Positions 206 through 58,964 are shown, numbered from the stretch's first letter. The stretch: DNA of 62,754 nucleotides from Candidatus Pacearchaeota archaeon (GCA_017609285.1 JAFCEE010000004.1:1-62754); one strand, 5' to 3'. Numbers and translations are program-made. The notes: generated by a model from the letters alone, not told the origin.

Positions 206-466
206 CCCACCCTGAAAGAAAAATTAAAACTCACGAGGTCGCTTCTTGCTCCACTCGTGCCTTCCGCTTCGCTTCAGGTCAAGCAACAGCAGATTAAGCG
301 GAAAATTTCTCTCGCATTCGCTCGTGCTTTTCGTAAGCACCAAAATTTTACCCATATTTTTCCTTCGGAAAAACAACTCGGGGTCGTTTCACTCCGCCCG
401 AGCCCTACGGGTCGCTTAATCGCGATGTTTCAATTGTCGGACATTTATTATTAAGGGGCTGGCTCG
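206..466 (+). ncRNA. Unclassified GC-rich structured element, copy 1, 5' arm (candidate large ncRNA or structured DNA element)
   Basis: Visibly GC-richer than flanks. Identity blocks with copy 2: 206-238 vs 7960-7992 (32/33), 277-301 vs 8028-8052 (23/25), 376-429 vs 8079-8132 (52/54). Conserved helices 232-237/254-259 and 292-300/413-421, hairpin 356-372. Strand suggested by one U.G-compatible change. Confidence 0.45.
434..463. repeat. Left half of two-tier inverted repeat enclosing ORF 536-1267
   Basis: TTGTCGGAC (434-442) and AGGGGCTGGC (454-463) are perfect reverse complements of 1304-1312 and 1281-1290. Confidence 0.85.
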
Positions 467-535: not shown

Positions 536-1267
536 ATGCAGAATAAAAATTATCTTTATATTGGAATAATCGCAGTTTTAGCTGTTGTAATTGTCTTCTT
601 AATTGTTGGCTCTAATCAACAACAGCAAAAAGTTCAAATGAAACCATCTACTTTAATATTTAAATTAAAAAGCGATTATTCTGGGAATTATCTTGGAGCC
701 ATCAATTACTATAGTGATACCAACACTTATCGCTCATTTTATACAATGGAATTATTTGATTATTGTTATATGGCCACAATTGAAAACTGGGTTTGCCTAT
801 TGGACGAAAACACAGGCGAAGAAGATTGTCATTGTAAAGGTAGCCCAGGTGTTGAAGATAAAAGATATTGTTTGGCATCAGAAGAAGAAATCTGTTTTAA
901 TATGGACTCTGATAAACAATTAAAAAATGGCGGTGTCAAAAAACTATCAAATAATTATTATGCTGTGATTTATCCTGCTTCAGAAGAAATGGTTAAGAGA
1001 TTTGCGGTTTTTGATAAATCAATAATCACCAAAGCTATAAGTGAAAGTGATAGGGTATCAATAGTTCCTGCAACATTTCCGAAAGGAATTAAGCCTGGAA
1101 TGGGAGATTCTATGGAAATGTCTCGGGAAGAGTTTTATAGCTATGTAATTGATGAGAATCCTTTGATTGAAGCATATTTCTGTGATGAACCAGAACAAAA
1201 TTTAAATGCTGTTGCAAGAGATTTATCCAATGGAGAAATCCCAATCACTTGCAAACAAATTATATAA
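536..1267 (+). CDS. hypothetical membrane-anchored Cys-rich protein (cargo of element copy 1)
   Basis: 243-aa ORF with N-terminal TM (YLYIGIIAVLAVVIVFLIVG). TATA-like TTTTATA at 507-513, about 23 nt before the ATG. No family recognised. Confidence 0.6.
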   Translation: MQNKNYLYIGIIAVLAVVIVFLIVGSNQQQQKVQMKPSTLIFKLKSDYSGNYLGAINYYSDTNTYRSFYTMELFDYCYMATIENWVCLLDENTGEEDCHCKGSPGVEDKRYCLASEEEICFNMDSDKQLKNGGVKKLSNNYYAVIYPASEEMVKRFAVFDKSIITKAISESDRVSIVPATFPKGIKPGMGDSMEMSREEFYSYVIDENPLIEAYFCDEPEQNLNAVARDLSNGEIPITCKQII

Positions 1268-1275
1268 TTCTAAAA

Positions 1276-1645
1276 CGCTCGCCAGCCCCTACTTTTAATT
1301 TTAGTCCGACAACTTTGATTTTTTGCCTTCGGCATCGTTGCACTAAAAATCAATCCCTCCAAGTATTCGGGAGAAACTAACAGGGCTTAAAGGGTTCCGT
1401 TCGGTTGCACCTCACTACACCCAAATTCAATTTCAGCTCTGAAAAAATTCTCAACTCTGTTTCACGAGGAGAATTTTTTCGAGGAAATTGAACTTCTTTA
1501 AGCCCGATGTTAGTTTCAATTTTTGAGAATGTGCATAAATTTTTTATAATGAAGTGCCCAAGAAATGAAATAAGATAGCGTCCCGCCATCTAAGGCTTCC
1601 CAGTAACTCTTCGGATTTTTTGCTTCGCAAAAAACTCTACGCAAG
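1276..1645 (+). ncRNA. Unclassified GC-rich structured element, copy 1, 3' arm
   Basis: 1336-1358 vs 8679-8701 (22/23: CGTTGCACTAAAAwTCAATCCCT). Shared CTTTG(G)ATTTTT + C/G-closed TTC hairpin. Nested helices 1383-1392/1496-1505 and 1441-1452/1469-1480. Confidence 0.4.
1281..1312. repeat. Right half of two-tier inverted repeat enclosing ORF 536-1267
   Basis: GCCAGCCCCT (1281-1290) and GTCCGACAA (1304-1312) pair with 454-463 and 434-442. Confidence 0.85.
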
Positions 1646-7839: not shown

Positions 7840-7959
7840 AATAAAATAATTGAATACAGGTTTTTAAATCTTATTGGAAATTTCTTTTTTAGAAAAAAGA
7901 AACAAAAAGCGAGCGGGCAATATCTCAAAATTAAATGGTCGTCGGAACCATCCTCCTCC

Positions 7960-8177
7960 CCCACCCTGAAAGAAAAATTAAAACTCATGAGGGGCTTTTT
8001 TAGCCCAGCTCGTGCCTCACTTCGTTCGGTCAAGCAACAGTAGATTAAGAGGTAATTTCTTTTTGCTTCGCAAAAAACACTCGGGGTCGTTTCACTCCGC
8101 CCGATCCCTGCGGGTCGCTTAATCGCGATGTTAGTTTCAATAAAAAATCAGCTAAATATAGAAAGGGCTTTGGACTT
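7960..8177 (+). ncRNA. Unclassified GC-rich structured element, copy 2, 5' arm
   Basis: Paralogue of 206-466 (same blocks). Lacks about 40 nt present in copy 1. TATA-like AAAATTAAAT at 7927-7936. Confidence 0.45.
8141..8177. repeat. Left half of two-tier inverted repeat enclosing ORF 8177-8524
   Basis: TAAAAAATCAGC (8141-8152) and AGGGCTTTGGACTT (8164-8177) are perfect reverse complements of 8640-8651 and 8591-8604. Confidence 0.85.
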
Positions 8178-8524
8178 TAACTCATCATAGTAAAAACAGG
8201 TTTATCATACTTAACAGAGTTATCATCATTTACTAAATATTCAAGTTCGGCTCCTCCACCTGAAAGTAGAGCAATATCCTGAAATCTGAGTTTTGCTCTT
8301 GTTTTTTCTGGTCTCGAAAATGAAGTAATTGTAAATCTTCCCATTCTTTGGCCTTCTGAATATTGTTGGAAGATTTTATCAAGACTTGCTTCTGTTTCTA
8401 AATCCTCTGGAACATAAATTCCCATAGGTCTTTTTTCTCTATTATCTCGCAAGTCCCTTAATACATTTCTAAATACTTCTTCATTTTCTTTTGCAGTTTC
8501 ATAATAATCTTGTACGCCGAACAT
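8177..8524 (-). CDS. hypothetical protein (cargo of element copy 2, opposite strand)
   Basis: 115-aa ORF. TATA-like TTTAAATA (plus-strand 8547-8554) about 23 nt upstream of the ATG at 8524. No family recognised. Confidence 0.5.
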   Translation of the reverse strand: MFGVQDYYETAKENEEVFRNVLRDLRDNREKRPMGIYVPEDLETEASLDKIFQQYSEGQRMGRFTITSFSRPEKTRAKLRFQDIALLSGGGAELEYLVNDDNSVKYDKPVFTMMS

Positions 8525-8590
8525 ATTATATGATGATGATAACTAATATTTAAAGTTTTCGGATATTTACTACTAAGAAGTTACCATGAT

Positions 8591-8651
8591 AAGTCCAAAG
8601 CCCTAGAAGTTTTAACTAATGGTGCTTCGCACTCGATATGCTGATTTTTTA
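8591..8651. repeat. Right half of two-tier inverted repeat enclosing ORF 8177-8524
   Basis: AAGTCCAAAGCCCT (8591-8604) and GCTGATTTTTTA (8640-8651). The spacer contains hairpin GTGC-TTC-GCAC. Confidence 0.85.
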
Positions 8652-8814
8652 CTTTGGATTTTTCGGACTTCGTCCGAACGTTGCACTAAAATTCAATCCC
8701 TAACAGGGATTATAACACGGGTTTTATGGTTCGAGCCTTGCAGGCTCTCGGGCTAAAGCCCTCGGAGGACTTAACAGCGATTAGGCGGAAAAATCCTCAG
8801 CTCGGATTTTTCCC
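8591..8814 (+). ncRNA. Unclassified GC-rich structured element, copy 2, 3' arm
   Basis: Homologous to 1313-1392. Hairpins 8664-8676 (CGGAC-TTC-GTCCG), 8696-8710 (ATCCCT-AAC-AGGGAT) and 8733-8747 (GAGCCT-TGC-AGGCTC). Confidence 0.4.
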
Positions 8815-8883
8815 AAATTTCTTACATAAAAATTTTCCTGAAAAAATTTAAATACTTTCTTGTTTAGTGATAAAGAAATAAAA

Positions 8884-9474
8884 ATGAGTACTGACTCATT
8901 AACAGATTTTGAACAAAAAATAGAAAGATATGATGGAAGGAGAAATCTTTTCGAATCTTTTCTTGTTTGTTCTATGCAAAAGGGGAGGAAAGAATTTCCT
9001 ACTATTGAAAAATTTTTGTTATCAGAATTGATTAATGGTGTTGTAACATATGTCGGAGGAAAAGTTGAACAAGTAGATTATTGGGCATATTATTTTGGAG
9101 ATGGGGGATTGGAGGAAAAATTAGTTAAAGAAATTTTTCAAAGAGAAATGACAGAAGAGAGAAGGAAGAAAATTCAGCCAAAAATAATGAGGGCTATAGA
9201 TAAGATGATAAATTATTCTTATGTTAGTCCATCTGGTCTTTCTTTTGATACTTTCCCTTACTGTGAGGTATATGGTTTTGCTGGAGATATTTTTGGAGTT
9301 CCAAAACCAATCAGTTATTTAACAGATAATGTTATAAACAGAGCTGATGAAATGCTTACTTCATTAAAAGAACAAGAGAGAGAAAATGTCTACGGAATAG
9401 GAAGAGTTATGAGGCCTTTTATTGAACAAGATATAGACTACATAAAAAGAGTATATTTTTGGCGAAAGTTTTAA
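8884..9474 (+). CDS. hypothetical protein
   Basis: ORF-track frame 8860-9474. First ATG is at 8884, about 30 nt after A/T-rich box 8841-8855. No family recognised. Confidence 0.5.
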   Translation: MSTDSLTDFEQKIERYDGRRNLFESFLVCSMQKGRKEFPTIEKFLLSELINGVVTYVGGKVEQVDYWAYYFGDGGLEEKLVKEIFQREMTEERRKKIQPKIMRAIDKMINYSYVSPSGLSFDTFPYCEVYGFAGDIFGVPKPISYLTDNVINRADEMLTSLKEQERENVYGIGRVMRPFIEQDIDYIKRVYFWRKF

Positions 9475-17610: not shown

Positions 17611-17946
17611 ATGACAGATATATTTGATAATAAAGTATTATGTAAAAATTGTGGAAAAGAAATGAAAAAAGCTAAATTAGTAAAGAGGGGTTTCCAAATG
17701 CGTGCACTAATATGTGAGAATTGTGGCAATAAAATTATTCATCCGCAAGATGAGTTAGAATATAAAAATTTTCTTGGACTAAAAAACAAGGTTTTTAAAG
17801 TTAAGTTACGACTTGTTGGAAATAGTTATGCTGTATCAATTCCTAAGGAAATAGTTTCATTTATGAGAGAACAAGAAAAAATGTTTAATGATCTTGTTAA
17901 GTTAACTTTTGAGGATGCTAAAAAATTAAAGTTAATATTTGATTGA
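17611..17946 (+). CDS. Zn-ribbon + AbrB/SpoVT-like domain protein
   Basis: CKNCG...CENCG followed by [14 protein letters not shown]. 4-nt overlap with cdc48. Confidence 0.55.
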
Positions 17947-20234
17947 AAATGCCACAAGAACAAGAAGTTAAGTTGAAAGTTGTAGAAGCATTACAAGATG
18001 ATGCATACAAAGGAATAGCTAGAATTGATACTGAGATAATGAGAAGATTGAGGGTGAGAAGAGGAGATGTTATAAGTATAACTGGAGGAAGAGAGACTGT
18101 AGCTATAGTAGATAGAGCTTATCCTGCTGATATTGGAGAAGGAATAATAAGAATAGATGGTATAATAAGGAGAAATGCAAGAACTGGAATTGGCGAAATA
18201 GTTTCTGTTAAAAAAGTTGAAATAAAAGAAGCTAAAAGAATCAATATAGCTCCAAGTCAAAAGGGAGTAATGGTACAAGCAGATCCAGAAGTTTTGAAAA
18301 GGGGCTTGTTAGGAAGAGCAGTAGTTAAAGGCGATGTAGTTGTTTTAGGCGGGACAGCAAGAAGAAGGGATATTATGTCTGATATGGATTTATTTAATGA
18401 TATTTTTGCTGAAGCTTTATCTGGAATAGGAGGTTTTGGCTTTTCTGGTTTACAGACTAGATTTTTAATAGTAAGTACACAACCTTCCCAACCTTGCATT
18501 ATAACTGAAAATACAGATATAATTCTTAGTCCTAAGGCTGTAGAAATTACAGAAGAGAAAATACCTGATGTTACTTATGAGGATATAGGTGGTTTAAATG
18601 AGGAAATTAAGAAAATAAGGGAAATGGTAGAGCTGCCTTTAAAACATCCGGAGATTTTTGAGAGACTAGGGATAGAAGCTCCTAAAGGTGTCTTATTGCA
18701 CGGACCACCAGGAACAGGAAAAACTTTACTTGCTAAGGCAGTAGCTAATGAGTCTGAAGCAAATTTCATACTAATAAATGGTCCAGAGCTGATGAGCAAA
18801 TTTTATGGTGAGAGTGAGAAAAATTTAAGAGATAGATTTGAAGAAGCAGAAAAGGCAGCTCCCTCTATTGTATTTATAGACGAGATTGATGCTATAGCTC
18901 CGAAAAGAGAAGAATCTTATGGTGAAGTAGAAAGAAGAGTAGTCTCCCAGTTATTAACGTTAATGGATGGTTTGCAAAGTAGAGGAAGAGTAGTGGTTAT
19001 AGGAGCTACTAACAGACCAAATGCTATTGATCCCGCTTTAAGAAGGCCAGGAAGATTTGATAGAGAAATAAGCATAAATGTTCCAGATAAAAAAGGCAGA
19101 CTCGCAATTTTAAAAATCCACACGAGAAATATGCCTCTCGCAAAAGATGTTAACTTAGAAGAAATAGCAGGAGTTACTTATGGTTTTGTAGGAGCAGATT
19201 TGGCTTCTCTTGCTAAAGAAGCTGCTATGAATGTTTTGAGGAAAGTTTTGCCAAAAATAAAAATGGACGAAGAAGAGGAAATCCCAAAAGAAGTTTTGGA
19301 GAATTTGAAAATAACTAAAAAAGATTTTTCTGAGGCTTTGAAATCAGTTAGACCTTCTGCAATGAGAGAAGTTTTAGTTGAAACACCAAATATTAAATGG
19401 CGGGATGTTGGTGGTTTAGATAAAATAAAGCAGGAATTAATAGAAACAGTAGAATGGCCTCTGAAATATCCTGAGAATTTTGTGAGAATGGGCATAAATC
19501 CGCCAAGAGGAATTTTACTTTACGGACCTCCAGGAACAGGAAAAACTTTACTTGCTAAGGCAGTAGCTAATGAGTCTGAAGCAAATTTCATACAAGTTAA
19601 AGGTCCTTCTTTATTAAGCATGTGGGTTGGTAAATCTGAGGAGGGTGTTAGAAAAATATTTGAAAGAGCAAGGCAGGTAGCTCCCTGTGTAATATTTTTT
19701 GATGAGGTAGATGCTTTAGCTTCAAGGAGGGGTTTAAGTGTAGGGACAAAAGTTACTGATCAGGTTTTAAACCAGTTGTTAGCTGAAATGGATGGTTTAG
19801 AAGAGTTGCAGAATGTAATTGTAATAGGAGCTACTAATAGGCCAGATATGTTAGATCCTGCTTTATTAAGGCCAGGAAGATTTGATAGGATTTTATTAGT
19901 CGGTCCTCCAACTAAAGAAGGTAGATTAGAGATATTAAAAATCCACACGAGAAATATGCCTCTCGCAAAAGATGTTAATCTTGATAAATTAGCTGAAATT
20001 ACAGAGGGATATGTAGGGGCGGATATTGAAGCTTTATGTAGGGAAGCTGCTCTGTTAGCTTTAAGAAAAGATAAAAATGCCAAAGAGGTTAAGAAAAAAC
20101 ATTTTGACGAGGCCATGAAAAAAATTAAAGCAAGTGTAAGTAAACAGGCAATTGATAGATATAAAAAAGTTGAACAAGACTACTTGAAATCAGCTAAAGC
20201 CGCTCTTGAGAATAATGCTGGTTATTTAGGTTAG
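17943..20234 (+). CDS. cdc48: CDC48/VCP-like AAA+ ATPase
   Basis: N-domain plus two AAA modules ([15 protein letters not shown] twice, DEID/DEVD Walker B motifs). Confidence 0.95.
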
Positions 20235-44764: not shown

Positions 44765-44882
44765 GCCTCAGTAGCTCAGTCGGTTAGAGCGTTACCTTGG
44801 TATGAAAATCACCAGCAGGTTTTCTATCCTGCGACCAAAAACAAAAAGGTAGAGGTCGTGGGTTCAATTCCCACCTGAGGCT
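44765..44882 (+). tRNA. tRNA-Thr (GGU) with 44-nt intron at 37/38
   Basis: GCCTCAG-TA-GCTC-AGTCGGTTA-GAGC-G-TTACC-TTGGTA[intron]A-GGTAG-AGGTC-GTGGG-TTCAATT-CCCAC-CTGAGGC-T. Confidence 0.85.
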
Positions 44883-53321: not shown

Positions 53322-56300
53322 ATGAGTTATAAGAAATATATTAAAAGAGGTAATAAAATTTATGGACCTTATATTTATAAAAGCGAGAGAAGAGGAGAAA
53401 AAGTTGTTACACAATATATGGGTAAAGGAGAAATTGATAAAAAAAGAAGAAACAAACTCAAATTTTTGTTGGTAATTCCTCTTCTTGTAATTGTTGCTTT
53501 AATTTTTTTTAAAACTTTTCTAACTCCTACTGGGAAGATTGTTTTGGAACCTATTCCTATTTATAAAATCAATGAAACAATAATGGGAGATGTAAAAATA
53601 AATCTAAACCGTGGTGAATTAATCCCTGCTGATTCTTTGATATTATTAAAATTAGATGGGCAAGAAAAAGAAATTTCTTTATCTCAAATCACTTCTATGG
53701 AACCTATAGAAGGGGATTTTTATGCTGAGAATACTGGATTGAGTGGACATGGTTTAGGTTATGGTTTTCCTGGTGAAAAGAAAATTTACCCTACAATTTC
53801 TTTTAAGATTTTAGTTTATGAAATATCTGAAGACATAGAAGAAAGCGAGGTTTCCCAAGAATCCAATGAGGAAAACATTACAAAAGCAGTAGAAGAAGAA
53901 ATCACCTCTGAACCAACAGAAGAAACAACACAAGCAGAAGAACCTGCTCTAGAAATAACAGAACAACAAGCAGAAGAAGAAACTATTACTGAACCAACAG
54001 AAGAAACAAAAGCAGTAGAAGAAGAAATCACCTCTGAACCAGTAGAAGAAACAACACAAGCAGAAGAACCTGCTCTAGAAATAACAGAACAACAAGCAGA
54101 AGAAACATCATCATCCGAAGAAACAAAAGCAGTAGAAGAAGAAATCACCTCTGAACCAGTAGAAGAAACAACACAAGCAGAAGAACCTGCTCCTGAATCG
54201 ATAACACAAACGACAGGAGATGTTAAAGGAGAGGCAGGGATAACTGGAGCAGTAGTCGGAGGTTCAAGAGTTATCGATGGCAAGGTTTCTTATGGCGAAG
54301 AATTCGAGTATGTTCTTGGACCGGGAGAAACAGCTGCAATAATTTCAGAAAGTGTAAAAACTGATGATAAAAATTTAACATCAGATGTTCTAGAGTTTGA
54401 GATTAAAAACAACAAAGTAATAATAACAACACAATATTATGAAACAGAACAAGGTTTTGGTCCTGAGTATCTAACTGATGAGGTTGAAAGCTTGACTGCA
54501 GAACTGGAAAAGTTTAATCTAAAAGCTTTGCCAGGAATTTTAGAGATTTCGATTTTGTATAAGAATACGACAATAACAGAGTTATCAAAAAAAATCAGGG
54601 TTTCAAAACAAGAAATCCCTTTTGAAATAGAGAACATAACTATTAACATAACAGTTACTCCTAACGCAACCTCGATAAAACAAATAAAAACAATTCCAGA
54701 TATAACAATGTTGAAGAATTCTAGATATATATTAAATCTTTCTCATTACTTTTATTCTAATTTTAGTATAACTTATACAGCAATACAGCCAGAAAATATG
54801 AGTATAATTGTGGAAGGCAATAAAGCTGAAATAATTCCTCAAACTAATTTTACTGGAACTCGGGCAAGCAAAATAATAGCTCAAGTAGGAGATTTAATAA
54901 TAGAAAGCAATCTTTTCAATATTATTGTTTCTGAAAGAGATATAAGTTTAAGAACAAGTAAATTGATAAGATTAGGAAAACCAGTTAAGTGGAAAAAGAA
55001 CATTAGGTTGGAGACCCCAACTAATTTTACTATTCAAATCCCAGAAAAATCCAAAAATATAACCATTAGGAAGATTGAGAATGGCAAACAAAAAAAGACA
55101 GAAATTAAAAACTTTAAGGTTAGGGCAGGGACTCTGACAGGGTATCTAACTCTTGAACTGAAACTTGAGAGAAAGCCATCTTTTTTAAAATCTCTAAAAA
55201 ATTTATGGATGGGTCTAAAAAAACTGACTGGTTTGGCAATTGAGAATGAGACAGAAAATACGTTTGTTATAGAAGAAAAATTAACAGAAAATGTTATAGA
55301 AATAGTTATTGAAGATAATGCTACAGAATATGAAATTGAGTATGAAACATCAGCTCCTGAGGCAAGAGAGATAAGAATAGGGAAAGGAAAGAAACAAATT
55401 ACTATTGAGGCTGAACTGCCCTATACTGATATACTTGCATATACTTTTATAGAGGAAAGCAAAGAAGAAGAAATTATTGTAGAGGGAGCAGAATATTATG
55501 AGTTAGTAGATAACAATAATGATGGTCTTGTTGACGAGGTTGACTGGATTGCGAATGTAGGAGATGAGATTTTAATTAGTATAAACAAGACGGATAATCA
55601 AACAAAAAAGGTATTTAATAGAACTAAAAACGCTGATATTTATTATCTTGGGGATAACACTTACAAAGCAGTTATTAGTTTAAAGCAGAAAAATGTTAAA
55701 GTAAACAATACTTATGTTCCTTTAACTGATGTTTTAGAAATGTATTCTAATTATAAGGGCAATATTTATATTAATTTTAACAATACTGAAATTAAATTAA
55801 CACCCTATTACTATTCTGGTTCAGAAAAATTTTATTTAAGTAATATTTCAGATTATGATGTTTTGTATCATTCTCATGTTTATGATAATAAAGGGGGTTA
55901 TAAATATGCTTTTGGGATTTTTAATTTTTCAAAACTTAATACTAATAAAATTGGTTTTGAAATAAATAGTAATAAAAATATTGTTATAGAAAATAATAAA
56001 ATTATTACTGAAAATATTTTAGTTGATTTTTCTGATGTTGCTGAAAGCAATTATTCTTTGAATATGAGTTCAGAATATGTTGAGATTACTGGGGAATTTG
56101 GCGAGAATCTTTATTTAGACCCAAGTGTCACAACACCAGACCCTACTTGGGACAGAACTTGCTATTGGGATGATAGTGCAGGAAATTATAAATTTGATGA
56201 TGCAGCTTCTACAACTTTACCTTGGGGTTATCATAGTACTCTTGGTGACATAAGAAGAGGTGCAATAGACCTTGATATTTCAGCTATTCCAGATGATGTT

Positions 56301-58964
56301 GAGTCAATAGATGATGTTCATTTAAAGATTTATGTTGATAGTGTTCCCGGAGCAGCATTTAGAGATACTTCACTTTACATAACAGAAATGACAGATAAAG
56401 GTGCTAATTATGCAACTGCCCAAGCTTTATTTCAAGCAGTAGATGACAATACTAAATATTTTACTTGGGGAAAGGCAAACTGGGCAACTGGATGGCAGGA
56501 TTTTGATTTAGGAACAAGTGCTGATACTGATTTACAAAACAGACTTGCTAATGATTGGTTTTCTATTGGTTTCTATACTTCAGAAGACGGAAATGCTGGA
56601 ATGTTTAGTTCTTTCCGTTCAGTAGATTATGCAGGGACTACTTCAGACCCATATTTAGAAGTTACTTATACCTTAGCTTCAAATGTTTTAGGATTAAATG
56701 TATCTCTTAATCCTCAATCAGTTTCTTGTAATGAAAATGTTAATATTAGTGGAACATTTACTTTAAATTCTGTTGGAGTCGGAGGTGTTCCAATTGATAT
56801 TTTTATGGATGGGGTTAGATTAAATTATAAAAGGAACTTTACATCTGGAAAAACTTTTTGGGATAATGGTTCTTATTCAAATACAATTAGAACAGATAAT
56901 TATATTCTATTAGATTTAGATTCTAATTATGATATTGTAACAAATGGAAATATGGAGGGAAATTATGTAGGAGGAGTTGCTCCAAATTGGGCTGAAGCTG
57001 CTTATGGAACAAATACTTATAGTTTAGACGAAGAAACTTCAAATCCTTTGCAAGGGAGTTCATCACAAAAAGTTACTATAACTGCCTGGACTGATGGGCA
57101 AGTTGGAATTAAACAAACTCAATCTGTAACTTCTGGAACAAAATATATCTATAAATTAAGAGGAACTTCAACTAATCCTTCAGCAAGTTATTTTATAGCA
57201 TTTCAACAAGATGGAAGCCCATATACTACTTATCTTAATTTTGGAGATTCTTTTAAACCAACTACCACAAATGATTATTATACAGGAGAAAAAACATCTT
57301 CTGGAACAGATGCTGCTTGTAACTTATTAATTAGGGTCAGTAAAGTTGGAACTTATGTTTGGGATGAATTTATAATTTCAACTGCTTATCTTAGTTCTGG
57401 AACTTATACTTCTCCTCCTATTGATTTAGGAACAGGTAATGGAAGCTTGATGATTAAATGGGGAGAATCTTTGCCAGAGAATACAGATATAAAAATACAA
57501 ACACAAACTTCTCCAGATGGCTCATCTTGGGGTGATTGGAGTTCAAATTATACTAATAGTTCAGGAGAGGTTGTAGAAAATCCTCAAAGATATATTAAAT
57601 ATAAAGCTATTTTGGAAACTTCAGACACTACAGAAACTCCTAAATTATATAATGTTACTTTTTATAGTGTTTTAACAGATTCAGCAGGGAATTATAATTT
57701 TAATATAACTGCTCCGTGTGTAGCAGGAACATATAATATTACAGTAAATGCAACTTATGAAGGCTCTTCTGTTACGAATAGTAGTATTTTGAGTGTAAGT
57801 GGAGTGGGAGATACAACTTCGCCAAAAATTAATTTTACAGATCCTACCCCTAAAAATGGAACCACAATTTCAGATACAAGTTTTGAAGTAAATGTTACTA
57901 TAAACGAAACCAATTTAAGAGATGTTATATTTAATTGGGATAATACAAATTATACAATTTATAATAATAGTTTATTTGTAATGTATAATTTTGACAATGT
58001 TTCTGCTTTAGGTGAAAATGATACCTATGTTATTGATTTAAGTCCTGATAGCGAGAATAATAATGCAGTCATAAGTTCTTCTACCTTTGTGGCAGGGAAA
58101 TATGGAAAGGCAATTGAATTAGATGGTTCTAGTTCTACAATAACTCCTTTAAGTTCTGATCCTGGAAATTTCCATGACTCTTTTTCTAAATTGTTTTTTG
58201 AATCTTGGTTTAAAGCAGATGATACTTCAAGCATTAATGGAAGAACTATTTTAGATATTGGAGGAGAATCAAATGGATTTTGCGTAAGGATAAAAGCAAA
58301 TAAACTTATTGTTTGTATCCAAGATGATGATTCTACAGAAAGTATTTCTTACCCATTTACAGATACTTCTAATTGGCATCATATAACTGCAGGTTTTAAT
58401 GACAGTACTCTTTCTTTATATCTTGATGGAGAACTTAAAAATTCCACTAATACCTCCTTTTCTTCTATTTCAGAACATATAAGCGAACCAGGAATAGGTT
58501 ATACTCAGGATTCAGATGCATGTGACTGGTCTTCTTCTGGAAATTATTTTGATGGAAAAATTGATGATCTGAAAATATGGAAAGGAGTAACTTTTAATGC
58601 AGAGGAGATAAAACAACATTATTATTCAAATTTGTATAAAACTTCTGCTTCAGATTGGAATTTATATGTAAATCAAATTAACTATACTAGTGGGAGTTAT
58701 AATTATTATGCTGCTGTTTATGATTCAAGTGATAATTTTAATATGACTGAGGTTAGAAATATTATTATAGATAAAACCTCTAGAATAGGTTTAGGTTTAA
58801 TTTATCCTACTAGGAACATTAATGTAACCCAAAATCAATTTTTTAATGTTACTGTAAATGTTTCTTGTTTTCAGGAAAACTGTGGGGAAGTCAATGTAAG
58901 CTTGGATCCTGTACATACTGGATTTGTGGACCCTAATGGAGATGAGCGATTATGTTTATACTGA
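53322..58964 (+). CDS. giant surface protein (N-terminal TM anchor, acidic repeats, CBM-like and LamG/ConA-like domains)
   Basis: 1880-aa ORF; TM near residues 48-66; LamG-like region about 58030-58600 (...GKAIELDG...FDGKIDDLKIW); very many N-x-S/T sequons. Confidence 0.8.
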   Translation: MSYKKYIKRGNKIYGPYIYKSERRGEKVVTQYMGKGEIDKKRRNKLKFLLVIPLLVIVALIFFKTFLTPTGKIVLEPIPIYKINETIMGDVKINLNRGELIPADSLILLKLDGQEKEISLSQITSMEPIEGDFYAENTGLSGHGLGYGFPGEKKIYPTISFKILVYEISEDIEESEVSQESNEENITKAVEEEITSEPTEETTQAEEPALEITEQQAEEETITEPTEETKAVEEEITSEPVEETTQAEEPALEITEQQAEETSSSEETKAVEEEITSEPVEETTQAEEPAPESITQTTGDVKGEAGITGAVVGGSRVIDGKVSYGEEFEYVLGPGETAAIISESVKTDDKNLTSDVLEFEIKNNKVIITTQYYETEQGFGPEYLTDEVESLTAELEKFNLKALPGILEISILYKNTTITELSKKIRVSKQEIPFEIENITINITVTPNATSIKQIKTIPDITMLKNSRYILNLSHYFYSNFSITYTAIQPENMSIIVEGNKAEIIPQTNFTGTRASKIIAQVGDLIIESNLFNIIVSERDISLRTSKLIRLGKPVKWKKNIRLETPTNFTIQIPEKSKNITIRKIENGKQKKTEIKNFKVRAGTLTGYLTLELKLERKPSFLKSLKNLWMGLKKLTGLAIENETENTFVIEEKLTENVIEIVIEDNATEYEIEYETSAPEAREIRIGKGKKQITIEAELPYTDILAYTFIEESKEEEIIVEGAEYYELVDNNNDGLVDEVDWIANVGDEILISINKTDNQTKKVFNRTKNADIYYLGDNTYKAVISLKQKNVKVNNTYVPLTDVLEMYSNYKGNIYINFNNTEIKLTPYYYSGSEKFYLSNISDYDVLYHSHVYDNKGGYKYAFGIFNFSKLNTNKIGFEINSNKNIVIENNKIITENILVDFSDVAESNYSLNMSSEYVEITGEFGENLYLDPSVTTPDPTWDRTCYWDDSAGNYKFDDAASTTLPWGYHSTLGDIRRGAIDLDISAIPDDVESIDDVHLKIYVDSVPGAAFRDTSLYITEMTDKGANYATAQALFQAVDDNTKYFTWGKANWATGWQDFDLGTSADTDLQNRLANDWFSIGFYTSEDGNAGMFSSFRSVDYAGTTSDPYLEVTYTLASNVLGLNVSLNPQSVSCNENVNISGTFTLNSVGVGGVPIDIFMDGVRLNYKRNFTSGKTFWDNGSYSNTIRTDNYILLDLDSNYDIVTNGNMEGNYVGGVAPNWAEAAYGTNTYSLDEETSNPLQGSSSQKVTITAWTDGQVGIKQTQSVTSGTKYIYKLRGTSTNPSASYFIAFQQDGSPYTTYLNFGDSFKPTTTNDYYTGEKTSSGTDAACNLLIRVSKVGTYVWDEFIISTAYLSSGTYTSPPIDLGTGNGSLMIKWGESLPENTDIKIQTQTSPDGSSWGDWSSNYTNSSGEVVENPQRYIKYKAILETSDTTETPKLYNVTFYSVLTDSAGNYNFNITAPCVAGTYNITVNATYEGSSVTNSSILSVSGVGDTTSPKINFTDPTPKNGTTISDTSFEVNVTINETNLRDVIFNWDNTNYTIYNNSLFVMYNFDNVSALGENDTYVIDLSPDSENNNAVISSSTFVAGKYGKAIELDGSSSTITPLSSDPGNFHDSFSKLFFESWFKADDTSSINGRTILDIGGESNGFCVRIKANKLIVCIQDDDSTESISYPFTDTSNWHHITAGFNDSTLSLYLDGELKNSTNTSFSSISEHISEPGIGYTQDSDACDWSSSGNYFDGKIDDLKIWKGVTFNAEEIKQHYYSNLYKTSASDWNLYVNQINYTSGSYNYYAAVYDSSDNFNMTEVRNIIIDKTSRIGLGLIYPTRNINVTQNQFFNVTVNVSCFQENCGEVNVSLDPVHTGFVDPNGDERLCLY
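53881..54205 (+). repeat. in-frame tandem acidic repeats (126 + 117 + partial unit)
   Basis: Unit KAVEEEITSEP(T/V)EETTQAEEPALEITEQQAEE..., starting at 53881, 54007 and 54124. Confidence 0.85.

Follow-up and report, generated by a model that had tools for sequence, protein, structure and literature searches.

Two paralogous elements in a Pacearchaeota contig

A 62,754-nt stretch of DNA from a Candidatus Pacearchaeota archaeon (GCA_017609285.1 JAFCEE010000004.1:1-62754; hereafter the window) carries two copies of a hairpin-dense element, beginning at positions 206 and 7960. An earlier note, made from the sequence alone, had described the first copy as an unclassified, non-coding element with a near-identical paralogue 7.7 kb away. 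Here we characterize these elements together with their homologues, and consider their probable role as recombination sites bounding gene cassettes. Both copies are rich in G and C (GC content 0.48 and 0.47) within an AT-rich window (0.31). Their conserved blocks have the identities previously counted by hand (206-238 vs 7960-7992, 32/33; 277-301 vs 8028-8052, 23/25; 376-429 vs 8079-8132, 52/54), and BLAST and repeat finding recover the same blocks. Two long words of the elements, a 25-mer and a 22-mer, are each present exactly two times in the window, with 0 occurrences expected.

The note had labeled these stretches 5' arms, and each is indeed one half of a larger unit that continues past an open reading frame (ORF). 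The window contains two such units in the form of short arrays, each consisting of an A-type site, one cargo gene enclosed by complementary sequences (clamps), and a following site. The clamp sequences differ between the copies, and the enclosed ORFs are unrelated and lie in opposite orientations.

All three helices drawn by hand are present in both copies. CACGAG/CTCGTG is present at 232-237/254-259, with CATGAG/CTCGTG at 7986-7991/8009-8014 in copy 2. The helix GATTAAGCG/CGCTTAATC (292-300/413-421) is likewise real, although its counterpart in copy 2, GATTAAGAG/CGCTTAATC, contains one A.G mismatch. The hairpin TTTTTCC-TTC-GGAAAAA exists one nucleotide further along than first placed (357-373), with TTTTTGC-TTC-GCAAAAA at 8060-8076 in copy 2. 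The recurrent TTC(G) loops are genuine as three-nucleotide c-TTC-g loops, but not as UUCG tetraloops.

The elements match no Rfam family, and the note too could not place them in a known one. Only three tRNAs in the window matched Rfam at the gathering score on either strand, and a search at E<=10 over 100-1750 and 7850-8900 returned nothing credible. The best match over the elements, to CRISPR-DR5, scored 24.3 bits where the cut-off is 40 (E 0.43). The sequence GTTGCACTAAAATTCAATCCCTAACAGGGATTATAAC at 8680-8716 resembles a type I-B style CRISPR repeat of this family, but it is solitary, and no CRISPR repeat array was found in the window; the resemblance is likely due to chance.

A conserved fold and its strand

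Homologues of the elements are abundant. Among species-representative genomes, an exact 20-mer of an invariant hairpin identified nine true homologues, which belong to Pacearchaeota, Woesearchaeota, and archaeal metagenome-assembled genomes (MAGs) without classification, and an 18-mer from the core identified 27 more loci on low-GC metagenome contigs. All 9 genome and 27 metagenome loci lie on contigs of 30-39% GC and of DPANN type. A search of viral contigs gave only a chance match. A covariance model (R1) built from 24 distinct sites found 84 sites in 316 kb of homologous loci (individual loci are given below as L numbers). In the window it found three only: copy 1 (277-442, 120.9 bits), copy 2 (8028-8145, 102.2 bits), and the second site of array 1 (1371-1524, 52.3 bits). 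A few contigs of 30-34% GC that carry DPANN-type sites (among them L003, L005, and L006, of 30-33% GC) are filed under Omnitrophota ('Zapsychrus'), Saccharibacteria, and Methanosarcinales MAGs, and are probably mis-binned.

The consensus fold has an outer R helix (AACA/TGTT), an L helix of 12 bp, and four tip hairpins, six helices in all. Across the 24 distinct homologous sites, its 36 pairs were 97% paired and 15 of them had changed on both sides. None of 500 shuffles reached the observed value on any measure, and slid controls were 32-48% paired. A conserved fold is thus strongly supported, far beyond chance, in agreement with the view that the element is non-coding and keeps its structure through compensatory changes. 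The L helix alone occurs in at least seven compensated versions.

Several observations bear on which strand folds. The - strand fold was more stable in 23 of the 24 sites, by 6.7 kcal/mol on average, and DNA parameters likewise favored the - strand of the window element (-41.6 vs -36.8). The triloops were strongly asymmetric: in 59 distinct element regions, counting only loops whose stems had 4 bp or more, the + strand carried 49 TNC loops and 4 GNA loops, compared with 17 and 22 in the rest of the window. The commonest + strand triloops were c-TTC-g, t-TGC-a, and c-TAC-g, with no cUUCGg tetraloop. Their - strand equivalents, cGAAg, GCA, and cGTAg, belong to the GNA 'mini-hairpin' class, in which d(GCGAAGC) melts at 76.5 C and r(GCGAAAGC) at 39 C (PMC13037366; see also PMC3201870). 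The folded strand is probably the - (bottom) strand of DNA, and we infer a single-stranded DNA substrate. The C-G to U.G change in copy 2, which the note had said works only on the + strand, does not discriminate, since G.T and A.C oppositions both occur on that strand.

Cassette arrays and a linked tyrosine recombinase

The order of motifs within a site is that of an integron attC site: xxTAAC, AG(CA), L'', a branched hairpin tip, L', (G)CGAT, and G|TTAxxxxxAAT, where the bar marks the breakpoint described below. R'' to R' spans about 75-145 nt, with an unpaired spacer between R'' and L''. The asymmetry of the spacer takes the form of 3 vs 4 nt or of a GA bulge. Judged by attC architecture, AAC and GTT are invariant or nearly so and 7 L-box types are compensated, while the R boxes follow the RYYYAAC/GTTRRRY consensus only in part.

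The sites of any one locus share one orientation and follow each other at intervals of 0.5-4 kb, each interval holding 1-4 unrelated ORFs; L093, L107, L113, L115, and L134 contain four sites each. Comparison of sites revealed a sharp boundary of homology. In 32 site pairs with an identity of 93% or more across the 100 nt before G|TT, identity downstream extended for only 1-6 nt in 31 before falling to background. The nine bases starting at this G were complementary at 8 or more positions to the R'' of the next site in 14 of 29 consecutive pairs (9 perfectly), but to the R'' of their own site in only 2 of 29. Shuffling the partners gave a mean of 2.5 (P<1/5000). Such complementarity is expected if the DNA downstream of G|TT is part of the next cassette and once shared a site with the end of that cassette in a circle. 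We therefore read the rule as a probable signature of circular cassettes, with a crossover at G|TT.

A second kind of pairing spans the cargo. Perfect 9-16-nt complements flank it in 18 of the 29 site pairs, against a mean of 3.7 and a maximum of 8 in permutations, and the pairs bearing these clamps include both cassettes of the window. The cargo itself is accessory-like. Most of it matches no Pfam family, and the remainder includes S-adenosylmethionine (SAM) methyltransferases, an APH kinase, and a tRNA-binding domain. Proteins with an NYN domain (PF01936), 35% identical to one another, are encoded near arrays in two genomes (L004, 2302-2856, - strand; L008, 6858-7421, + strand).

A tyrosine recombinase of 267-273 aa with all catalytic residues lies beside the array in L001, L005, L008, L009, L010, and L115/L129. 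Its gene is 0.4-4 kb upstream of the first site and always divergent. The linkage also holds in the reverse direction, as the two closest homologues of the protein with upstream sequence (L013, L014) adjoin sites as well. The closest solved structures are those of archaeal XerA (4a8e, the best, and 5hxy), while a C-terminal ..SPLD tail is common to the recombinase and the Vibrio integron integrase IntI4, but not XerA. The match to TIGR02249 is split and below cut-off.

At 55-105 nt from the recombinase start codon stands a perfect palindrome with 9-11-bp arms and a 6-bp center, followed by xxATG|TTA.... The tail of this attI-like junction complements the first downstream R'' in five of six loci, at 9/9 positions in L001, L010, and L014 and at 8/9 in L008 and L009. 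The first cassette of L008 and L009 ends in the same combination of A-module and site as is present at window positions 206-438 and 7960-8141. Five other contigs carry the first-cassette leader of L014 after ordinary sites; their cargo is different, and the homology sets in precisely at G|TT. One site is inverted directly against the recombinase gene in L115 (7386-7519) and L129 (6452-6585). Its R', GTTATCATGA, is also one arm of the gene-adjacent palindrome GTTATCATGA-GTAAAT-TCATGATAAC, and the palindrome arms are therefore linked to the R-box sequence.

No such association was detected for more distant relatives of the enzyme. Those from the candidate phyla radiation (CPR; L017, L018, L019, L022, L024, L026, L027) are 41-47% identical and have a dif-like TTCGTATAA-TATACA- within ~100 nt of the start codon, in a manner that recalls the arrangement of XerS and difSL; no hairpin sites were detected beside them. 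Distant homologues at 47% identity or less (L015-L091) showed no BLAST-level similarity to the sites, and model R1 had no match in L016 and L020. The literature regards the Xer-related recombinases of candidate phyla as substitutes for Xer (PMC8138268).

The features of the two window arrays are listed in Table 1. Several of their parts recur elsewhere. The A-module also precedes a site in L008 and L009, and 77 nt of the C-module region of array 1 are 99% identical to L008. The C-module helix covaries across loci (TTACATTTT/AAAATGTAA, CTAAAATTT/AAATTTTAG). The motif at 7881-7902 also precedes sites in L008, L009, L010, and L014; in L009, GCGGGCAATCTCTC pairs with GAGAGATTGCCCGC of the cassette leader.

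Table 1. Features of the two arrays in the window
Feature	Position	Strand	Details
Copy 1 A-module (accessory 5' module)	206-278	+	starts CCCACCCTGAAAG; hairpin 232-237/254-259; 32/33 identical to 7960-7992
Copy 1 attC-like site	279-438	+	R'' TCAAGCAAC 279-287; L'' GATTAAGCG 292-300; L' CGCTTAATC 413-421
Copy 1 site tip	301-412	+	branched hairpins; hairpin 357-373; invariant core hairpin 377-402; CCC-TAC-GGG 403-411
Copy 1 site end		+	spacer GCGAT; G427|TT; tail TTTCAAT
Copy 1 left clamps	434-442; 454-463	+	TTGTCGGAC; AGGGGCTGGC; pair with 1304-1312 and 1281-1290, perfect and nested
Cassette 1 cargo ORF	536-1267	+	243 aa; N-terminal hydrophobic segment; Cys-rich; no Pfam family
Cassette 1 right clamps	1281-1290; 1304-1312	+	GCCAGCCCCT; GTCCGACAA
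Accessory C-module	1313-1372	+	helix TTGATTTTT/AAAAATCAA around GCC-TTC-GGC and single-stranded GTTGCACT; then TCCC..GGGA hairpin
Array 1 second attC-like site	1373-1520	+	R'' GAAACTAAC 1373-1381; L'' GGCTTAAAG 1384-1392; L' CTTTAAGCC 1496-1504
Array 1 second site end		+	G1509|TT; R' GTTAGTTTCAAT 1509-1520; then cassette leader to ~1700
Perfect A/T palindrome with G-rich sequence	7881-7902	.	TTTCTTTTTTAGAAAAAAGAAA then GCGAGCGGGCAAT; probably a bidirectional oligo-T terminator plus a clamp half partnerless in the window
Copy 2 A-module	7960-8029	+	hairpin 7986-7991/8009-8014; 94% identical to L009 over 163 nt
Copy 2 attC-like site	8030-8141	+	R'' TCAAGCAAC 8030-8038; L'' GATTAAGAG 8043-8051; L' CGCTTAATC 8116-8124
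Copy 2 site tip		+	hairpin 8060-8076; core 8080-8105; CCC-TGC-GGG 8106-8114
Copy 2 site end		+	G8130|TT; R' GTTAGTTTCAAT 8130-8141
Copy 2 left clamps	8142-8152; 8164-8177	+	AAAAAATCAGC; AGGGCTTTGGACTT; perfect nested complements of 8640-8650 and 8591-8604
Cassette 2 cargo ORF	8177-8524	-	115 aa; no Pfam family; orientation opposite to the sites
Array 2 right end	8591-8830	+	clamps 8591-8604 and 8640-8650; C-module with GTTGCACT from 8680
Array 2 truncated last site	within 8591-8830	+	R''-like GGACTTAAC-AG; L''-like CGATTAGGCGG; no L'/R'

Elsewhere in the window, a tRNA gene (44765-44882) has a 46-nt insertion (intron) at the anticodon loop, which fits an archaeal genome. An 1880-aa ORF (53322-58964) contains ~2.6-3 tandem copies of a 126-nt (42-aa) unit at 53880-54248, 72-92% identical. 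Direct repeats ~822-825 nt apart (18559-20070) run through a 763-aa ORF (17943-20234), as for two tandem homologous domains.

An integron-like reading and its alternatives

Taken together, these data make it likely that the elements are folded-DNA, attC-like recombination sites bounding mobile gene cassettes in DPANN archaea; their neighbor in related genomes is a Xer-type recombinase and not a classical integron integrase. One DNA strand, most likely the - (bottom) strand, would fold into a branched hairpin whose stem presents two recombinase-binding boxes, R (xxTAAC/GTTAxx) and L (GATTAAGCG/CGCTTAATC). A cassette would start with the TT after the CGATG of one site and end with the G of the following one, with a leader, 1-4 cargo genes, and a trailer in between. 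Once circular, its first bases and left clamp would pair with its own R'' box and right clamp. Arrays in the related genomes begin at the junction adjoining the divergent XerA-like enzyme, which has the IntI-like C-terminal tail and lacks the IntI insertion. This enzyme would exchange strands at G|TT, as IntI does at attC/attI or XerCD on the folded attP of CTX phage. Its action on the sites, and continued movement of the cassettes, are predictions from sequence organization. The system appears to work like an integron, but its recombinase lacks the feature that defines an integron integrase, and we do not file it as one.

Several observations weigh against this reading. Some concern the site itself. 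In about a third of sites the L'' and L' halves are mismatched. Chimeras of L''/L' type, which include L006, L103, L111, L117, L119, L135, and copy 2 of the window, appear to imply frequent exchange between sites inside the conserved tip, which a crossover at G|TT leaves unexplained. The same chimeras create both G.T and A.C oppositions, and the wobble count is balanced between the strands. The strand argument depends on literature thermodynamics. Unlike the variable tip of attC, the tip here is also highly constrained. The hairpin CTCGGG-GTCGTTTCACTCCG-CCCGAG is invariant in all copies across genera (window 377-402 and 8080-8105; columns 108-133 of the site alignment A2), as are the single-stranded tip motifs CCACCCATAT and GTTGCACT. 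An invariant 20-nt hairpin with conserved single-stranded motifs suggests another function, and may represent an accessory-protein binding site or a second role; none of the readings considered here accounts for it.

Other difficulties lie in the cassettes and the enzyme. About 30% of cargo ORFs are reversed, and the cassettes are often multi-gene (1-4 ORFs per cassette) with their own A/T terminator-like palindromes, whereas most integron cassettes carry a single, promoterless, co-oriented ORF expressed from Pc. Where 2.4 kb or more of upstream sequence was available, roughly half of the loci have no recombinase there (L004, L112, L113, L119, L120, L134, window copy 2). The enzyme itself matches the XerA equivalog NF040815 at 219-250 bits (cut-off 220), which 3 of 4 proteins reach. 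It lacks the insertion that is specific to IntI and lies around patch III, aligning to IntI4 (2a3v) over 6-187/7-199 and 189-266/242-319 and skipping IntI4 residues 200-241. The recombinase may be the housekeeping enzyme for dimer resolution, and its gene has a dif-like palindrome next to it.

Further points against the reading come from the window itself. No tyrosine recombinase is encoded in its 62.7 kb, and both of its junctions break the cassette rule: pairing between GTTTCAATT at 427 and GAAACTAAC at 1373 is poor, and no R'' downstream matches the R' at 8130. Array 2 ends in a truncated site, with no match to model R1. The missing junction partners (GCACATTCTCAA, TGTTGCTTGRC, GAGATATTGCCCGC) were sought in the window and not found, and it has no partner for the outer clamps or for R'' TCAAGCAAC. 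We read the window arrays as probably orphan and decaying, reduced to one cassette each and comparable to attC clusters without an integrase.

The main open alternative keeps the recombination sites and dispenses with the dedicated platform. The enzyme would be the sole housekeeping XerA, the palindrome the chromosomal dif, and the cassettes hitchhikers piling up at dif in the manner of integrative mobile elements exploiting Xer (IMEX), much as CTX, TLC, and RS1 accumulate at dif in Vibrio. The XerA score, the solved relatives, the missing IntI insertion, the gene-adjacent palindrome, and the CPR relatives with dif-like sequences placed as XerS is with difSL are all in keeping with such an arrangement. 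However, co-oriented multi-cassette arrays, the next-site rule, and a conserved trailer and leader are traits of integrons rather than of IMEX. The ..SPLD tail is that of IntI, and arrays also occur far from any recombinase gene. On balance we consider this alternative unlikely, though far from negligible.

A structured non-coding RNA family, transcribed from either strand and using its helices across ORFs as processing or scaffold stems, is improbable. The earlier note had implied a + strand RNA with its own promoter. Strong covariation and the invariance of single-stranded motifs and a hairpin loop across genera would suit an RNA, as would the A/T palindrome upstream of some copies, which might include a TATA box; the G-rich - strand also gives a good fold as RNA. 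Yet the window copies share no conserved sequence ahead of 206 and 7960, no Rfam family matches on either strand, and the - strand is the one that folds better. The GNA triloops of that strand are highly stable as DNA, not as RNA (PMC13037366). Neither the pairing of R' with the R'' of the next unit rather than its own, nor the linkage to a divergent recombinase with a matching junction, is predicted by an RNA, and the long-range helices enclose ORFs of either orientation. Arrays, G|TT breakpoints, next-site complementarity, and the tyrosine recombinase nearby in relatives instead indicate a DNA recombination site.

We assign a slightly smaller chance still to a selfish intergenic repeat, either a miniature inverted-repeat transposable element (MITE) or a repeat of the repetitive extragenic palindrome (REP) or bacterial interspersed mosaic element (BIME) type, spread by an unrelated transposase or homologous recombination and near the recombinase only incidentally. 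Like REP/BIME, the elements form multi-copy clusters of GC-rich intergenic hairpins on an AT-rich background, with sharp homology boundaries, and the L''/L' chimeras would attest to frequent recombination between copies. REP/BIME differ in having no recombination-box layout, cassette rule, or co-oriented arrays linked to a tyrosine recombinase. Furthermore, the contiguous element is not bounded by terminal inverted repeats or target duplications, its pairing partners lie across the cargo in the neighboring unit rather than inside it, co-orientation within arrays is strict, and in 5 of 6 loci the junction next to the recombinase follows the cassette rule. Inspection by eye showed no gene for a transposase, IS200/IS605 TnpA, or RAYT in the loci covered, not all of which were Pfam-scanned. 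Finally, the ORF-spanning helices had prompted us to consider rRNA, RNase P, or a group I/II or bulge-helix-bulge (BHB) intron with an ORF in its loop, which we rejected as the flanking modules recur in other orders and combinations and the pairing partner always lies in the neighboring unit.

Relation to known systems and significance

Turning back to the attC-like reading, the closest comparison is with integron attC arrays, including clusters of attC sites lacking an integrase (CALINs) and the uniform attC families of sedentary chromosomal integrons, for instance the Vibrio cholerae repeats. The R''-L''-variable tip-L'-R' order with conserved AAC...GTT is the same in both. So are the homology break and presumed crossover at G|TT, with the start of a cassette complementing its own R''. 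Co-oriented, mostly unknown small accessory genes, sites that are more similar within a lineage, and a divergent recombinase gene with an insertion junction beside it (in the relatives; the window has none) complete the parallel. The bottom-strand GAA triloop of the sites is also present in the attC-aadA7 model site. In integrons it is the bottom strand that folds and recombines, its choice being governed by extrahelical bases.

Differences from integrons are also considerable. The recombinase lacks the IntI-specific insertion, and the non-coding unit is larger, with a trailer of ~230-280 nt and a leader of up to 180 nt compared with 57-141 nt for attC. Accessory modules, cassette-specific clamps, and the invariant tip hairpin are peculiar to these elements, in addition to multi-gene cassettes, ~30% reversed ORFs, terminator-like palindromes, and an R-box consensus that is only partly fitted.

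Archaea, among them a few Pacearchaeales/Woesearchaeales MAGs, are reported to carry integrons and attC clusters that lack IntI, and the archaeal integrases of that study carry the IntI insertion (PMC9668308). Some of the attC clusters reported in these orders may be sites of the present family. In full-text searches of the literature, no account emerged of DPANN cassette arrays associated with a XerA-like enzyme.

Systems that exploit Xer offer further parallels. The attP of CTX and other IMEX, recombined by XerCD at dif, shares the Xer-family enzyme, a folded single-strand hairpin mimicking a two-arm core (as would be the case here), and tandem arrays near a dif-like site. Unlike the present arrays, CTX integration is irreversible and involves one element, with no shuffling array or next-site rule, and CTX and IMEX depend on bacterial XerC and XerD under FtsK-dependent control. 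The pdif modules of Acinetobacter plasmids similarly place small gene modules between Xer sites, where they are apparently moved by housekeeping Xer. However, these are ordinary 28-bp double-stranded sites in alternating orientation, in contrast to the long folded hairpins in direct orientation found here. XerS/difSL and archaeal XerA/dif share a single Xer-type enzyme of ~270-290 aa, and the XerS target adjoins its gene, the position taken here by the palindrome. In those systems, which have no cassette arrays, each chromosome has a single site for the resolution of dimers, and the IntI-like tail is found only in the present enzyme.

Integron integrases are thought to derive from Xer recombinases, and the IntI-specific insertion is considered essential for recombining folded attC sites. 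We know of no system intermediate between Xer and the integron integrases. Against this background we suggest, with some hesitation, that the sites belong to an integron-like platform of DPANN archaea whose Xer-type recombinase never acquired, or has lost, the IntI domain. Sites of ~450 nt would fold in the circular cassette, and accessory modules and clamps would partly replace the role of that domain. Such a platform could have invented the integron principle independently, or it could survive from a stage intermediate between Xer/dif and IntI/attC. If so, the origin of folded-DNA recombination and the real need for the IntI insertion would become directly testable.

The sites are a strong sequence marker of hypervariable regions, and they flag DPANN contigs wrongly binned into bacterial MAGs. 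Pacearchaeota and Woesearchaeota have very small genomes and, to our knowledge, almost no described mobile-element biology. If the attC-like reading is true, these sites would provide a mechanism for the turnover of accessory genes in both lineages.

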